This document shows, in pieces, positions 58,744 through 64,000 of a DNA stretch of 64,000 bases. Source of the DNA: Sporomusaceae bacterium (lineage in GTDB: Bacteria; Bacillota; Negativicutes; UBA1444); assembly GCA_018434355.1 (NCBI GenBank), contig JAHDPL010000031.1, forward strand, positions 567 to 64,566, given 5' to 3'. A model generated the notes under the pieces. The model did no database searches. It had not been told where the DNA came from and worked only from the letters and a program-made list of their open reading frames with translations. Position 1 is the stretch's first letter. Every line of letters begins with the position of its first letter. A program made the position numbers and the translations under genes.

Positions 58744-58759
58744 GAGGGGCGGGTTATTG

Positions 58760-59026
58760 TTACTTGCTGACCAGGTAGTCAATCAGGGCGGCTTTTTCCT
58801 CGTCATTCAGCGTCGCGCCTTTGCCGATCATCCGGTTGACTGTTGTTTGCCAACCCGCGCGGTCTTTGGTTTTGCTGGTGATGCGGTCCAGACCGTGACA
58901 GCCGCCGCAACGATCTTCCATGATCGCTTTGCCATCCGGCGTACTGAACCCGTGGGTAGGTACACTGAACATCGCCAGAAAAACTGCCAGGACCAAACCT
59001 GCTGCCAGTAGCGTCCATTTGTTCAC
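58760..59026 (-). CDS. Small membrane-anchored/secreted mono-haem c-type cytochrome
   Basis: N-terminal hydrophobic segment and a single CGGCH haem-binding motif. GTG start after AAGGAG. Confidence 0.7.
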   Translation of the reverse strand: MNKWTLLAAGLVLAVFLAMFSVPTHGFSTPDGKAIMEDRCGGCHGLDRITSKTKDRAGWQTTVNRMIGKGATLNDEEKAALIDYLVSK

Positions 59027-59156
59027 TGCGTTCAGCTCCTTTTATTTAATGCTACTATTGCGATGAATTCGCGGCGGGGGAGGGAAATCCTGCAGGAATA
59101 TTGGTAGCTATTAGAGAAGGAGATTCCTGAATAAAAACCGGCAGGAGGTTGAAACA

Positions 59157-59582
59157 ATGAACAGAAAAATTGCTGGGCTTGTGTTTCTCCTAATGATTTT
59201 CTTGTCGAACAATGTTTGGGCGGCGAACTGGGTGCATGTGGCAACCAATTGGTTTGGGCAAGACAAGATGTATGTCGATACTGAAAGCGTCTTCAAAACG
59301 AAGGATACGATCATCTTCTGGGAGTTGCTGGTGGAAGACGACACCCCGGATAAAGCGAACAAAATTCTTTATAAGTACGAAGCGACGCTCACGTCGCCGC
59401 GACAGCAAAGAACCCTGGAATACTTACTCTACAACCCCCAAGGGAAAGAAACTTTTCGCAACAAAAGAAGCGGCGGTTTCTTGCCGGTGCAAAAGACTTC
59501 CCCCGCTGACCAGTGCATTGACTTTGCGATAAAACACGCAAAAGAGGGAAAAGACGCTGGCGAAGTACCGGTATTGCCATAA
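59157..59582 (+). CDS. Secreted hypothetical protein (141 aa)
   Basis: Signal peptide (LLMIFLSNNVWA-ANW), GGAGG RBS, own terminator. No family recognised. Confidence 0.6.
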   Translation: MNRKIAGLVFLLMIFLSNNVWAANWVHVATNWFGQDKMYVDTESVFKTKDTIIFWELLVEDDTPDKANKILYKYEATLTSPRQQRTLEYLLYNPQGKETFRNKRSGGFLPVQKTSPADQCIDFAIKHAKEGKDAGEVPVLP

Positions 59583-59601
59583 GAGCATTTTTTTACAAAT
59601 A

Positions 59602-59642
59602 AAGTGCGTAGATTACAGACGGGAATCTACGCACTTTTTTCT
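59602..59642 (+). terminator. Rho-independent terminator
   Basis: AAGTGCGTAGATT...AATCTACGCACTT followed by T6. Confidence 0.85.
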
Positions 59643-59781
59643 ACTTAGTGACCAGATAATCAATCGGGGCTGCTTTTTCTTTGGCGCTTAGCGTCGCGGT
59701 CGTTGGTCTTGCTGGCAGGGCGATTCGGCTTTAAGGAAATTGTTGCGATGAATTCGCGGCGGGGGGAGGGAAGTCTTGCAG
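59641..59781 (-). pseudogene. Decayed, internally deleted duplicate of the cytochrome c gene 3' end plus its upstream region
   Basis: 59641-59703 aligns with 58760-58822 at about 75% identity; on the minus strand it encodes ...ATLSAKEKAAPIDYLVTK* versus ...GATLNDEEKAALIDYLVSK*. 59742-59781 aligns with 59057-59095 (TTGCGATGAATTCGCGGCGGGGG(G)AGGGAA). The CxxCH-coding part is missing. Confidence 0.7.
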
Positions 59782-59822
59782 AGAGGGGGGCGAGGGGGGG
59801 TAGGAGAGAGGATGGGAAGTGA

Positions 59823-60116
59823 GAAATAAGAGAGAAGAAAGGCAGGTGCAAGGACAGCGACGCCGGGAAGTCGCCGGCAAGCAAGATTCCGGCGGATAAG
59901 ACCGTCATCACTCCAAATCAGACCGAGCAGAAAGTCGATGTATACCGCATTACGCTGGACAAGGCCAAGTGGGGCGTGAGTGGGCTGGTGCTGGCAGGTG
60001 GGTCGGAACCAGTCGAATTCGGCGGCGGACCAGCATACCATAACAAGGACTGGTCGGTCTCGGCCGGCGTGACGACGCGTAGCCGGGTGTTTGTAATGGG
60101 AACGAAATATTTTTGA
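59823..60116 (+). pseudogene. Start-less 97-codon ORF with host-like GC3-rich codon usage; probable 3' remnant of a disrupted gene
   Basis: The frame is open from the stop at 59820-59822 to TGA 60114-60116 (...KVDVYRITLDKAKWGVSGLVLAGGSEPVEFGGGPAYHNKDW...). There is no ATG/GTG/TTG near its 5' end, so it is absent from the ORF track. Confidence 0.4.
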
Positions 60117-60294
60117 TGGCAGAGCCGCTTTGGGAAACCGGGGCGGCTTTTAAGTTTATATAAATCATATAGCATGAAAAATAAACATGAAAGCATTGAT
60201 GTTTTAGAGGAATTATTCAATTTAATGACGAAAAGGATTCAAACGATACTATTGTTACCCGTAGGTTGTATGAAGCGATTCGAGGAGTGAGTTT

Positions 60295-61050
60295 ATGAAG
60301 AATTTAACATTTGTATTACGTGCGAGCATATTTGGTGATTTTTCGAAAATTAAAGTAAACCCCGAGACATCAATTAAACTCACTTCTTTATTCAGTCAAT
60401 ATGGGTTTATCCCTTCAATTTATCAGGAAATTTATCTTAATGAATTGCAAAAAAGGCAACAATTGCTTGAATTTGATCAAGGGTGGAACATTAAGTTCGG
60501 AATTAATCGAATTGACGTTGAAAAAACGTTAAATCCCAAAAATAGAGAGCTTAATTATAGATTGCCTGACTTTATTGGTACTGCAATGAAATATTTAAAT
60601 ATTATTATTGCGGAGTTTGATATTATGGCAAATCGTTTAGCGTTATTCTCTGACAATTTGATTGTTATTTCAGAAAAAAAGGTGCTTGATGACATATATC
60701 GAAACCTCACAAACCCTCTCGATGCTTATAGAGATGTGAGTGTTTCTGAGTGGAATTTAAGATCGGTGACAAGAAAAACTGTGAAAGATAATGGATGGGA
60801 AGAAATTTTCAATGTTATTGTTGACGTAAGTAGGTCAAAAGGCACGATTCAACTTGGCGAAGATATTCCAGAAGAGTCGATAGATGATTTGAGGATTTAT
60901 TTTGATATTAATACTGTTCCTGAAAGTGATTCGCTAAGATTCGACGCAAGTTCATTAGAACCGTTTTTTTCTAATGCGTTGCGATTTGTAGGTGAAATAT
61001 CTTTGCAGATGGAGGGGAGATTTAATGTCAATCTTTCAAGTATTAGATAA
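60295..61050 (+). CDS. Island gene A: hypothetical protein, 251 aa, no family recognised
   Basis: GAGGAG RBS 8 nt upstream, low GC. The 3' end overlaps gene B by 26 nt. Soluble, with mixed alpha/beta-looking composition. Confidence 0.75.
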   Translation: MKNLTFVLRASIFGDFSKIKVNPETSIKLTSLFSQYGFIPSIYQEIYLNELQKRQQLLEFDQGWNIKFGINRIDVEKTLNPKNRELNYRLPDFIGTAMKYLNIIIAEFDIMANRLALFSDNLIVISEKKVLDDIYRNLTNPLDAYRDVSVSEWNLRSVTRKTVKDNGWEEIFNVIVDVSRSKGTIQLGEDIPEESIDDLRIYFDINTVPESDSLRFDASSLEPFFSNALRFVGEISLQMEGRFNVNLSSIR

Positions 61051-61780
61051 TGAAAGTTCGATTGAGTCTGACTCCAAGAAAAAAATACAAGTAACGAAAG
61101 ATGTAATTTCGTTCATAACATTCACATCACCTAACCAAATAACCAAAGGAAAAAACGTAGTATCCGCGGTCCCAACTAACAGCGATATATTTGATATGAA
61201 GCAAAAATCCTGCTTTTTTTATTGGACTGATACAGAAAAAGCCAGAGGGTGGGACTTTGTATCATCGTCTATACCTGCAAGCGTTGAACAACGAGGAAGT
61301 CAGCATTGTGAGGCAATGCTGACATTAACCGTTAATTCCCCAGAATCGAAGCTTATTATTTCCCAAATTAATCGAGAAGAATATGAAGCTGGATATGAAA
61401 ACGAATCAGAAGATATGATGAAATTGCTGATAGAAAAATATGGAATTGATAGATTTGGTAAATGGTTGCTGGAAATTTGGAAAGAAGGGTATACGACGAA
61501 TCCGCATTTATGTGTAGGGATTTTGCATATGGTATCCCATGTTTCTCCAAGTTATATTGAGCCCTATGGGTCTAACATTGCTATGGCTGCTGTTTCGCAT
61601 AAATCAATGGAGGTAAAGGAGTTTGGCATAAAGGTTTTTGAAAATTGGGGCGACCCGCAATACATTAAAGTGCTTGAAATGATGGATTGCGGAAATAAGT
61701 TGATAGATTCGTATCGAAATGTTGTTATCAGTTCTTTGAAAAATGAACAAAAGGTGTGTAATAATGCCATTACTGCTTAG
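61025..61780 (+). CDS. Island gene B: hypothetical protein, 251 aa, no family recognised
   Basis: ATG 61025 is 5 nt after GGAGGGGAG (61011-61019), inside gene A; the track ORF starts at 60992. The C-terminal half looks helical-repeat-like. Confidence 0.75.
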   Translation: MSIFQVLDNESSIESDSKKKIQVTKDVISFITFTSPNQITKGKNVVSAVPTNSDIFDMKQKSCFFYWTDTEKARGWDFVSSSIPASVEQRGSQHCEAMLTLTVNSPESKLIISQINREEYEAGYENESEDMMKLLIEKYGIDRFGKWLLEIWKEGYTTNPHLCVGILHMVSHVSPSYIEPYGSNIAMAAVSHKSMEVKEFGIKVFENWGDPQYIKVLEMMDCGNKLIDSYRNVVISSLKNEQKVCNNAITA

Positions 61781-62276
61781 ATCTGCTACATTAAGTCGCT
61801 GGGTTGATATAGATGATGAAATTAATATTGAAGATATTGATGCAGATGCAATTACTGATTTGCGGACAACGAAAAATAGACTATCCATGTGGCTGATTAG
61901 CGATGATAAAAAAGATATGGATAATGCAATTCTTGCATTGGCAACAAATCGGGATGGCATTGAAAAAATGTCTGTTTTCTTTGTTGAATTAAATGAAGTT
62001 GAAAAGTGTTTTTCTATTCAAAACACGCCAGGCCAAAGCCCTTTTATTGATGTGAACTCTAGTCATCGAGATGTTTGTGGGTTGACTCATAAAGGCTTGG
62101 GGAAATTGGCCGGTATTTGTTTAAACTCAGTAAAAAATTCTAATTGGGAAGAAATTAGTAAGAATAGAATCAAAGAAATGATAAAAAATGCCATACAAGA
62201 AAAGAGATTGACACGTGATTTGGTTAAGAAAAAACTGCAGGACAATATAGAAAAGGAAATTGGTTGGGATTTGTGA
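61764..62276 (+). CDS. Island gene C: hypothetical protein, 170 aa, no family recognised
   Basis: ATG 61764 is 7 nt after AAGGTG (61751-61756), inside gene B, with a 17-nt overlap. The alternative ATG 61743 has no RBS. A terminator follows. Confidence 0.7.
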   Translation: MPLLLRSATLSRWVDIDDEINIEDIDADAITDLRTTKNRLSMWLISDDKKDMDNAILALATNRDGIEKMSVFFVELNEVEKCFSIQNTPGQSPFIDVNSSHRDVCGLTHKGLGKLAGICLNSVKNSNWEEISKNRIKEMIKNAIQEKRLTRDLVKKKLQDNIEKEIGWDL

Positions 62277-62310
62277 AGACTAAAATTGTAGAAGATTTTC
62301 ATTTTGCCTG

Positions 62311-62339
62311 ACCGCTCACCTTCGGGTGGCGGTTTTTTT
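62311..62339 (+). terminator. Rho-independent terminator of the A-B-C operon
   Basis: ACCGCTCACC-TTCG-GGTGGCGGT followed by T7. Confidence 0.85.
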
Positions 62340-62452
62340 GTTTGTAGGCAGGAGTTTCTTTTGCATTATTGAATTGAATATCAACACTCCTGTTGTGCTG
62401 AAGAGATAAGGTTCTTGCTCATGAAAAAAAGTTTGTGGAGATGAAATGTGCT

Positions 62453-63370
62453 ATGGACAAAGAAAAATGGCGCTTGACAGAAGAATTGGTTGTATTGATA
62501 GAAAAACACATTTCGTCTGATTCAATAATCGAATATGATCAAAAACTTACAGACCTTTCTGGAGATAGCAGCGGTGGGCGCCAATGTGATGTCGTGATAC
62601 GGACGGGTAAGCCTCCGAGGGAAACCTTGACAATTGTAGAGGTTCAGGACAGGGGAACACCATTTAATATTACGACCTTTGATGGTCTGTACGACAAAAT
62701 GAGAAAAGTAGGTGCGCAGCATCTGATTTGTGTTTCAAGGCAAGAATTCCCCGAGTCTATAAAAAAAGCTGCTCTGCGACATGGTCCGACAATTCGGTTG
62801 GTTACGCTGAAAAACATTGAAGCAGGGGATTTCCCAATTAATTTTTGGGATAATACTATTGTTTGTGAACATAGGGGGATTATAAATATTGGCACAGTTG
62901 CTCATGGCGTGAAAAAAGGCGAAATTCCAATGCAAAAGCCTTCGAGTTCTAGCTCAAAAGATGAGATATATCTTTTGGGAGAAGAGAAGGCTTCAATTGC
63001 AGAGTTACTATTTCAATACATTGATAGAAACAAGTTGCTTTTAACTCCAGGTCTGAATGAGGTTGCAGTGAGCGTGCCATTTGACGATAGATGCCTGTCG
63101 TTTGTGTCAAGTGATAAACTAATCCAGGTAAAGGTTGATTTTTCAGCTACTGTTGAATTTGCCTACTATCGATTGCCGCTTAAGTATATGTCTTATAATC
63201 AACAGGATTGGAACCATCCTCTAGCATGGATTGCTGAAGCGAAAGGGACTGTCAATGGTAACGAAGTGACAATTAAAGGCTTAGTTAAACCAACAGGAGA
63301 CGGCAATTATGGATTCAATGTTATGGAGATATCACCCGGGTATAAACTGAAAGTGACTACTGCGATTTAA
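62453..63370 (+). CDS. Island gene D: hypothetical protein with an N-terminal PD-(D/E)xK-like (restriction-endonuclease-fold) motif
   Basis: RQCDVVIRTG...TLTIVEVQDRG...HLICVSRQEFPESIKKAA follows the beta-strand D ... E-x-(K/Q) pattern of Mrr/restriction-endonuclease-like folds. Start uncertain (GTG 62435, ATG 62441 or ATG 62453). The C-terminal ~150 aa are unassigned. Confidence 0.65.
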   Translation: MDKEKWRLTEELVVLIEKHISSDSIIEYDQKLTDLSGDSSGGRQCDVVIRTGKPPRETLTIVEVQDRGTPFNITTFDGLYDKMRKVGAQHLICVSRQEFPESIKKAALRHGPTIRLVTLKNIEAGDFPINFWDNTIVCEHRGIINIGTVAHGVKKGEIPMQKPSSSSSKDEIYLLGEEKASIAELLFQYIDRNKLLLTPGLNEVAVSVPFDDRCLSFVSSDKLIQVKVDFSATVEFAYYRLPLKYMSYNQQDWNHPLAWIAEAKGTVNGNEVTIKGLVKPTGDGNYGFNVMEISPGYKLKVTTAI

Positions 63371-63478
63371 TTATCTTGACTCCAAATACAAAAGCGGAAC
63401 AACAAAGTTGTAAATTTGAAGATAAATGCGAATATCTTGCAACCCCAATAAAATCGGCAATTCGCCAAGCTTTAAAGT

Positions 63479-63512
63479 GCCACCTCTCACCTTCGGGTGG
63501 GCGGCTTTATTT
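63479..63512 (+). terminator. Terminator-like hairpin sharing its core with the 62311 terminator
   Basis: GCCACCTCTCACC-TTCG-GGTGGGCGGC, an imperfect stem, then TTTATTT. It lies about 110 nt after the gene D stop. Confidence 0.5.
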
Positions 63513-63750
63513 CCTACAATTACCAAAACGTGCGCCATTTCGTGTGCCACCCTTATGCAAAATCAGCAAAAACACCCTAATTGGCACAAACTAATAATGT
63601 GGCAATAACGGCGTATTTTCGGCATTTTCACACAACGCCAAGTGTAGCAAAAAGCCAAAATCCGCACTTCAAAACCGTGTGTTTCAATGCTCTGCAAAAA
63701 CATGGTAGCTTGAAGTATTTCAAGAATGATGCCGTATGCTTGCAAATATA

Positions 63751-63785
63751 AAAACTGCTCCGACCGTATGATCGGAGCAGTTTTT
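63751..63785. terminator. Bidirectional terminator
   Basis: AAAACTGCTCCGA-CCGTATGA-TCGGAGCAGTTTT. Confidence 0.8.
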
Positions 63786-63837
63786 GCTAAACGGTCAAAA
63801 TCTGGATAAATTACGGGTCAAGGTCGAAGATGTTCTT

Positions 63838-64000
63838 TCAAAGGTTCGCTTTAAAATAATCCATAGCCTTTCTAAAACATCCTCGTTTTGCGGAGAGTTG
63901 ACCAAACTCGCTTTCAGGTCCCTTCTGGACGACTTCTTTATCTGCTATGACTGCTAATGTTTGAGTATCAATTAACATGGCGCGGGCGCGAATGTTCACT
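63838..64000 (-). CDS. 3' end of an unidentified minus-strand ORF that runs off the window
   Basis: The frame is open from the window edge to TGA at 63840-63838 (...NIRARAMLIDTQTLAVIADKEVVQKGPESEFGQLSAKRGCFRKAMDYFKANL*), followed by the bidirectional terminator. Function unknown. Confidence 0.35.
   Translation of the reverse strand, partial: VNIRARAMLIDTQTLAVIADKEVVQKGPESEFGQLSAKRGCFRKAMDYFKANL

Follow-up and report, generated by a model that had tools for sequence, protein, structure and literature searches.

What do four genes in a short island of AT-rich DNA do at the end of a GC-richer contig, and do they belong together? The question is raised by a 64,000-nucleotide (nt) stretch of the genome of a Sporomusaceae bacterium (GenBank assembly GCA_018434355.1, contig JAHDPL010000031.1, positions 567 to 64,566), referred to here as the window. 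The island carries four genes, which we call A, B, C, and D. The original prediction, made by inspecting the sequence, was that these are four orphan genes making up one horizontally acquired conflict or defense module, the fourth gene encoding a nuclease-like protein. We found that A, B, and C form a translationally coupled three-gene cassette that recurs as one conserved unit in bacteria, archaea, phages, and plasmids. D is an independent module that merely adjoins A-B-C in this genome.

A three-gene cassette conserved as a unit

The description of the genes as orphans was wrong at the family level. An exhaustive phmmer search with B alone gave homologues in 720 representative clusters (50% identity) at an E value of ≤1e-3. 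Scanning genomes, one per species, with the B alignment gave 43 loci. The bacterial loci belong to Clostridia, Negativicutes-like and Lachnospiraceae Firmicutes, Bacteroidota, Planctomycetota, several classes of Proteobacteria, Desulfobacterota, Acidobacteria, Spirochaetes, Hydrogenedentota, WOR-3, KSB1, and Victivallales. The trio was also found in two archaeal lineages, Methanomassiliicoccus and Halobacteria. Local phmmer comparisons of all open reading frames (ORFs) at these loci placed an A homologue directly 5′ of B in 39 of them and a C homologue directly 3′ of B in 41, always on the same strand; the loci without the full trio are contigs that end inside the cassette. A and B overlap or have ≤10 nt between them at 39 of 39 loci; for B and C, the count is 37 of 39. 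One check proposed with the original prediction, whether the gene set recurs elsewhere in this order, was thus answered for A-B-C by the 43 species-representative loci. Complete trios are present in 4 further IMG/VR viral contigs, and the trio was found in about 25 Acinetobacter prophage loci.

The foreign composition of the cassette is also a general property. Its GC content was at least 3 points below that of its flanks in 32 of 35 loci, with a mean difference of −9.6 points, and was never above them by as much.

Not every search recovered these relatives. A word-indexed homologue search with C alone found only C itself, because its relatives are too distant to share 5-mers. At the Lachnospiraceae/Blautia loci (numbered L067 to L070 and L079 to L082 in our set), the longest B and C ORFs overlap by 100 to 143 nt; public gene calls omit B there, and consequently the protein collection under-reports B in these loci.

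In the window, the four plus-strand genes are intact, as had been described (ORFs at 60295-63370; Table 1), and their products are identical to entries in the protein collection. The original prediction gave all four genes Shine-Dalgarno sites and their own terminators. Shine-Dalgarno-like sites do precede A, B, and D, but the one 5′ of C is weak, and there are only two terminators, one after C and one after D. Because of the A/B and B/C overlaps, and because terminators follow only C and D, the transcription units are A-B-C and D. The Shine-Dalgarno site of gene A is overlapped by a 38-codon ORF (MKNKHESIDVLEELFNLMTKRIQTILLLPVGCMKRFEE; 60174-60290) that stops 4 nt short of the gene; since other loci have no conserved upstream element, this ORF may be due to chance. 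Across loci, nhmmer found no conserved noncoding element 5′ of A, and Rfam matches were at chance level only, which makes an RNA component like that of retrons or ToxIN unlikely.

TABLE 1 Positions of the genes and other features of the island and its left flank
Feature	Coordinates	Strand	Basis and remarks
Host-type gene remnant plus 35 nt downstream	59842-60151	+	No start codon; stop at 60116; product ends ...KYF
Low-GC island	60152-64000		GC profile; right end lies beyond the window
Gene A	60295-61050	+	251 aa; ORF, Shine-Dalgarno GAGGAG
Gene B	61025-61780	+	251 aa; 26-nt overlap with A
Gene C	61764-62276	+	170 aa; 17-nt overlap with B
Intrinsic terminator closing A-B-C	62312-62336	+	Terminator scan; CCGCTCACCTTCGGGTGGCGG followed by a T-run
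Gene D	62453-63370	+	305 aa; start codons at 62435 and 62441 are in-frame alternatives
Terminator-like hairpin 3′ of D	63486-63510	+	Terminator scan; core CTCACCTTCGGGTGG in common with the first terminator
Perfect-stem inverted repeat	63750-63785		Self-BLAST, 88.9% over 36 nt
3′ end of a gene leaving the window	63838-64000	-	ORF list, translation; AT-rich (GC 0.43)

The cassette on phages, conjugative elements, and small plasmids

When phage genomes were searched with tblastn, C matched the Acinetobacter phages Ab105-1phi, AbTJ, and MD-2021a. In these phages, the end of the prophage carries, after the lysozyme gene, a row of three hypothetical genes (226, 215, and 197 aa). The first is homologous to A, the second to B, and the third to C (BLASTP E values of 8e-4, 1e-9, and 1e-14, respectively), and the three correspond to phrog_13731, phrog_14576, and phrog_10743. 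In the Acinetobacter phages JX403940/NC_019541, ON391949, and OR180312-14, the match is limited to the first 43 residues of C, at 51% identity, which suggests truncated or recombined versions of the third gene. In a contig from Clostridia, the trio immediately follows a tape-measure gene (1586 aa). In a Christensenellaceae genome, the trio lies in an element with ParA, ParB, MazE, and Toprim genes that resembles an integrative and conjugative element (ICE), beside a 2345-aa Eco57I-like methylase-helicase.

Small plasmids provided the simplest setting (tblastn). On a 4375-bp ColRNAI plasmid of Klebsiella, the trio is essentially the sole cargo outside the backbone, the other annotated genes being rop, a helix-turn-helix gene, a replication peptide, and a 38-aa fragment. 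The trio is also carried by a 5042-bp Enterobacter plasmid and by a 7513-bp RepM/MobQ plasmid of Acinetobacter, and family hidden Markov models confirmed complete A, B, and C on all three. The DNA of the Klebsiella cassette had no match among 5,426 complete E. coli genomes.

At one locus, that of Myroides sp. NP-2 (L088, 1592-5572), a pair of ORFs of about 67 and about 154 to 162 aa is repeated three times 5′ of the cassette. These small ORFs have no Pfam hit, and the array is reminiscent of an immunity-gene or diversity array.

Three protein families outside the characterized systems

By eye, the first three proteins had been judged impossible to place in any characterized family, and this was confirmed: A, B, and C of the window had no match at an E value of ≤1 in Pfam (2025), NCBIfam (June 2026), or PADLOC-DB v2.0.0 (2023). 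Profiles of the A, B, C, and D families found nothing below an E value of 0.1 among the sequences of the PDB (2026), and hhalign showed the four families to be mutually unrelated. Hits to housekeeping, phage-structural, or metabolic families would have argued against a conflict module; the only families that A, B, and C matched were PHROGs, none with a known function.

Protein A corresponds to phrog_19817 (E = 2.5e-11). Its AlphaFold 2 (AF2) model, built from nine sequences, has a mean predicted local distance difference test score (pLDDT) of 84.9 and a predicted template modeling score (pTM) of 0.84. The predicted fold is α/β, the elements running β-α-β4-α and then β-α-β3-α. The invariant residues (P40, R114, E170, N173, N206, R215, and F216) are almost all in the second half. 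Foldseek found weak matches to viral TFIID/TBP-like, B263R-like, and VETF-like proteins, and because of these matches and the order of the elements, a TBP-like duplicated fold was considered. Two β-α-β4-α-like halves in the model speak for it. However, the best query-normalized template modeling (TM) scores were 0.30 in the PDB and 0.31 in BFVD, below the TM of ≥0.5 set for a TBP-like fold, and a comparison of the two halves of A with each other (hhalign) was not significant. One member of the A family touches TIGR04255, a "sporadically distributed" NCBIfam family, at an E value of 0.0058, far below the cutoff. The predicted TBP-like fold and TIGR04255 are leads only.

Nearly all of the 720 B clusters align solely to residues ~108 to 241 of B, which include the motif ...FENW.... 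This C-terminal half is conserved, helical, and HEAT-like; the N-terminal half lacks conservation among family members and is polar and slightly acidic (14% DE versus 9% KR). B corresponds to phrog_21208 and phrog_14576 (4e-10 and 5.7e-6). A few members of the family have weak matches to HEAT_2 (E ~2e-4) and Imm30. B thus resembles HEAT/ARM repeat scaffolds in its helical-repeat-like conserved half and in those few HEAT_2 matches, but B of the window has no such match itself, and the likeness is one of sequence. Among longer B homologues (a "Rosetta stone" check), none was fused to a known domain or to A or C.

C is the most conserved member of the cassette (phrog_10743, E = 6.6e-20). R6, D28, T35, L40, and S41 are invariant, and N38, W43, and H101 are nearly so (≥90%); this conserved polar set would be compatible with an active site. 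An AF2 model from ten sequences (pLDDT 73.9, pTM 0.69; residues 15 to 38 unmodeled) has an alternating β/α fold, for which Foldseek found no neighbor in the PDB (best E = 2.5).

Three known kinds of system were tried and rejected. The sizes of the proteins do not fit a colicin-type operon, no signal or lysis peptide was seen by eye, and the cassette is also present in archaea and Firmicutes. For a polymorphic-toxin/immunity pair, no trafficking domain was seen by eye, and the weak Imm30 match is the sole hint. An ABC-3C system would require an ATPase gene, of which there is none, and there was no Pfam hit. A closer parallel is the "3HP" (three hypothetical proteins) defense system, reportedly described by Rousset et al. 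in 2022. Domain-less cassettes of this type, found in prophage and satellite hotspots, likewise encode three small cytoplasmic proteins in which no domain is annotated; the operon is compact and is located in the moron region of temperate phages and elsewhere on mobile DNA. PADLOC-DB v2 presumably includes 3HP, and A-B-C has no match in it at an E value of ≤1. A-B-C is also far more widely distributed, being found in many bacterial phyla and in archaea, and it is known from its genes alone. A literature search, in which coverage of subscription journals was mostly lacking, found no description of the cassette. Within the limits of these databases and this literature, A-B-C lies outside every known kind of system.

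What the cassette may do

The explanation that we favor, tentatively, is that A-B-C is a cytoplasmic conflict system serving in phage defense proper, with action by abortive infection or addiction included. The grounds for this are that the cassette is the sole cargo of cryptic plasmids, that it occupies moron positions in prophages, that its composition is almost constantly foreign, that it is scattered across the domains of life, and that half of one partner diverges rapidly. Conservation of B in the C-terminal half only, across 720 clusters, is diversification of the sort typical of conflict genes. In addition, some neighbors of the cassette at other loci are defense genes, and the cassette of the window adjoins a gene with a probable nuclease fold.

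If A-B-C is such a system, A, B, and C would be made in fixed proportion and would work together in a single complex. The scaffold would be B, with a HEAT-like C-terminal half holding the partners and a diverging N-terminal half setting the specificity. A, with its predicted two-lobed α/β structure and polar invariant patch, may serve in binding or sensing. The best candidate for a catalytic effector would be C, because it is the most conserved protein and carries a set of invariant or near-invariant R, D, T, N, S, W, and H residues. We infer the complex, the three roles, and the function in defense. It is possible, if doubtful, that A-B-C is an undescribed immune or conflict system of bacteria and archaea, with three families that have no relatives, new sensing and effector chemistry, and a minimal 2-kb unit that travels on phages, conjugative elements, and cryptic ColE1-type plasmids.

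Several results weigh against a conflict function. None of 107 family members had a significant match in Pfam or NCBIfam (the best subthreshold matches were to HEAT_2 at 2.4e-4 and to TIGR04255 at 5.8e-3), and in A-B-C we recognized no nuclease, NADase, protease, pore, kinase, or NTPase, and no homology link to any defense, toxin, or antitoxin family. The models of A and C come from shallow alignments (9 to 10 sequences, cluster members), and the roles suggested above, drawn only from conservation patterns and these models, are a working hypothesis. Genomic context adds to the doubt. Many chromosomal copies have no mobile-element gene within 10 kb, such as that of Imperialibacter, which lies between era/der and housekeeping genes, and a copy in Lachnospiraceae ends a polysaccharide-synthesis (capsule) locus, beside a transposase; several copies in such settings have no defense neighbor. 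A further check proposed with the original prediction was whether homologues sit near known defense genes. Among the 112 nearest neighbors at 42 non-duplicate genome loci, scattered defense genes were present (a type III methyltransferase, bSEFIR, RT-UG17, Cas1, Stk2, RmrA, and capH), but there was no recurrent family or partner, and the neighbors, for which no background comparison was made, were heterogeneous and mostly ordinary genes. Finally, D may not cleave DNA, since its lysine position is Q or R and 12 of its relatives match an "inactive REase" family (see below).

One rival explanation is that A-B-C is an addiction or stabilization module, similar to a tripartite toxin-antitoxin (TA) system, that keeps its mobile element and does not block phages. 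Like type II and tripartite TA systems and abortive-infection operons, A-B-C is a compact, cotranscribed operon of overlapping, coupled genes on mobile DNA, spread sporadically over plasmids, prophages, ICE-like elements, and chromosomes, and a stabilizing function would suit the sole cargo of very small ColE1 and RepM plasmids that have no partition system. However, at 170 to 250 aa, the proteins exceed the size of those in classical TA pairs, neither a DNA-binding domain of the antitoxin kind nor any known fold or domain of a toxin was detected in them, and the conserved partners number three, with a HEAT-like repeat protein among them. We consider pure addiction unlikely; because the boundary between addiction and abortive infection is blurred, it overlaps with the conflict explanation.

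An accessory role outside conflict (in regulation, stress tolerance, or modulation of surface or metabolism), with the cassette hitchhiking on mobile DNA, would account for the lack of a conflict-type domain, for the heterogeneous neighbors, and for the Lachnospiraceae copy at the end of a polysaccharide-synthesis locus. Carriage as the only cargo of 4- to 7-kb plasmids, near-universal compositional foreignness, sporadic spread over phyla and domains, and the rapidly diverging half of B are all more typical of conflict genes, and an accessory role is, in our judgment, improbable.

It is rather improbable that A-B-C is a counter-defense or establishment cassette, acting against host immunity or taking over host functions. 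Its presence on prophages, on small plasmids, and on an ICE-like element beside a giant methylase-helicase of the kind typical of transfer leading regions would fit such a role, as would the polar, slightly acidic, variable half of B. Against it, many chromosomal copies, such as that of Imperialibacter, are distant from any mobile-element gene, and known anti-defense genes are usually single small genes, not coupled trios.

The original idea of one four-gene module, with D as its nuclease effector, drew on the adjacency of A, B, C, and D on one strand in one low-GC island, but it is very hard to sustain, because D is separated from C by a terminator and a 176-nt spacer, has a GC content of 0.40 versus 0.33 to 0.36 in A to C, and is never found with A, B, or C at the other loci fetched, a negative co-occurrence test that essentially refutes it and leaves three genes as the unit.

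D, a solitary gene with a nuclease-like domain

The separation of D from the cassette was seen in both directions. Among the 97 loci fetched, and with the exception of the window, the A-B-C loci lacked D homologues, and the D loci lacked any homologue of A, B, or C. D homologues are solitary: two lie between housekeeping genes, and one lies in a Pseudomonas island that also contains two integrases and a reverse transcriptase.

The homologues of D number more than 350; they are about 300 aa long, and the top identity is 43%. The N-terminal domain (~120 aa) has the invariant residues E10, E17, Q44, D46, E63-V-Q65, R67, and K82 and the motif GAQHLxCVS. The C-terminal domain (~180 aa) is less conserved and has no assignment; Y248, Q250, and W259 are conserved in it. 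D of the window had no Pfam match at an E value of ≤1. Among 57 relatives, 21 match Mrr_cat, weakly (best E value of 1.3e-6), 12 match NA-iREase1, 4 match NERD, and 2 match PDDEXK_10. These matches, which agree with the nuclease-like character assigned to the fourth gene at first sight, make a PD-(D/E)xK fold for D reasonable. D46 and E63 are invariant, but the position of the lysine in this motif is occupied by Q65 (or, in the alternative register of E63-V-Q65-D-R67, by R67); an invariant lysine, K82, lies on the following predicted helix.

D resembles the Mrr and type IV restriction endonucleases (PF04471, Mrr_cat) and NA-iREase1 (PF22722) in the N-terminal α/β PD-(D/E)xK pattern (E17, D46, and E63), in its solitary occurrence in variable regions, and in the weak Mrr_cat matches that about a third of its relatives reach. 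The nuclease domain of Mrr is C-terminal, whereas the nuclease-fold domain of D is N-terminal, and D also differs at the lysine position. It is reasonable to place D, from its sequence, in the known PD-(D/E)xK fold class as a solitary family with an extra C-terminal domain. D would most likely be either a nuclease that acts by itself, in the manner of type IV restriction enzymes, or a DNA sensor.

In the roughly 470 nt 3′ of D (63371-63837), there was no convincing ORF and no Rfam match. The inverted repeat in this region is likely a bidirectional terminator between the downstream spacer of D and the next gene. The terminators after C and D share a 15-nt core, CTCACCTTCGGGTGG, which forms a UUCG-type tetraloop hairpin; this could be a coincidence, or a hint that both modules were assembled in one donor.

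The island and its borders

The island is a foreign insert that adjoins a truncated host gene. An abrupt change of composition near 60.12 kb had been noticed in the original prediction from counts on a few lines (about 27% and 42% GC inside, about 70% in a flanking line), and calculation bore it out, with a fall in GC content from 0.57 to 0.37 at about 60.15 kb. GC content is 0.370 over positions 60120-63840, versus 0.567 ± 0.029 (minimum, 0.50) in 3.7-kb segments of the first 58.7 kb. In 300-nt steps, it is about 0.60 up to 60.0 kb, 0.44 at 60.0 to 60.3 kb, and then 0.30 to 0.46 to the end of the window. The GC content of third codon positions is 0.28 to 0.36 in genes A to D, versus 0.77 in the neighboring GGDEF-EAL gene. 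The proteins A, B, C, and D are each singletons at 90% identity in a collection of about 15 billion proteins, in which six host proteins from the window have 10 to 169 close relatives each. This difference indicates that the island is a strain-specific acquisition, in keeping with the horizontal origin first proposed, and close host relatives do not have the island. The island is small and was put together from two accessory modules, A-B-C and D, each mobile on its own. As had been stated, no integrase, transposase, or tRNA is present within the window.

The left border had been called scarred because of a repeat, and this was only partly correct. The repeat (59730-59781 versus 59045-59095) sits inside a conserved block common to the window and the related contig L001; because L001 also has it, the repeat is ancestral and is not a product of the insertion of the island. 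Judged from alignments, the real damage is a gene remnant at 59842-60116. This remnant is 5′ truncated and amounts to the 3′ third to half of a ~200-aa host-type gene, of which intact homologues in the metagenome contigs L093 to L097 match it at 70 to 82% nucleotide identity (blastn, tblastn); an intact 201-aa homologue is at L095 3925-4530. Because nucleotide similarity to these homologues ends at 60151, the foreign DNA starts at about 60152. Between the end of the homology to L001 and the remnant, the sequence is rich in purines and includes long runs of G (GGGGGGAGGGAAG...GGGGGGCGAGGGGGGGTAGGAGAGAGG; 59770-59840).

The alignment with relatives thus set the left border and gave relatives without the island, but it did not reach the right border, which lies beyond the window. 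Doubt about that boundary had been expressed from the start and was justified: the GC content is still 0.43 up to base 64000, a minus-strand gene leaves the window there, and the source contig is 65,044 nt long.

The host flank also differs from that of relatives farther to the left. As far as the stop of the GGDEF-EAL gene (58677), it is 90.6 to 93% identical to the metagenome contigs L076 to L078. In these, the GGDEF-EAL gene is followed by about 11 kb (TRAP transporter DctPQM, HpaB, dehydratase, PFOR, and IclR) and then by cytochrome c and 141-aa genes. The window does not have the ~11 kb; the cytochrome c and 141-aa block (58757-59778), which is 92.5% identical to L001, directly follows the GGDEF-EAL gene. 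This difference is a deletion or rearrangement independent of the island. Two of the same relatives carry a HicA/HicB toxin-antitoxin pair (L076, 6075-6676; L077, 839-1440), which is not present at the site in L078; the pair is another small accessory insertion in the same neighborhood.

Significance of the cassette

If A-B-C is a conflict system, it is a compact one (~2 kb) with a very wide spread in bacteria, archaea, phages, and plasmids. No component of it is like anything characterized, and work on it might uncover novel chemistry in an effector or a novel means of detecting infection. Such a function, if true, would also account for the cargo of certain small, "cryptic" plasmids in Klebsiella, Enterobacter, and Acinetobacter. 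Experiments could conveniently start from the 4.4-kb Klebsiella plasmid and the Acinetobacter phage Ab105-1phi. With D comes a further defined family, whose members are solitary, Mrr-like, and unassigned in their C-terminal domain. Whatever the function of the cassette, three protein families gain a firm genomic definition in gene order, coupling, invariant residues, and carriage on mobile elements.

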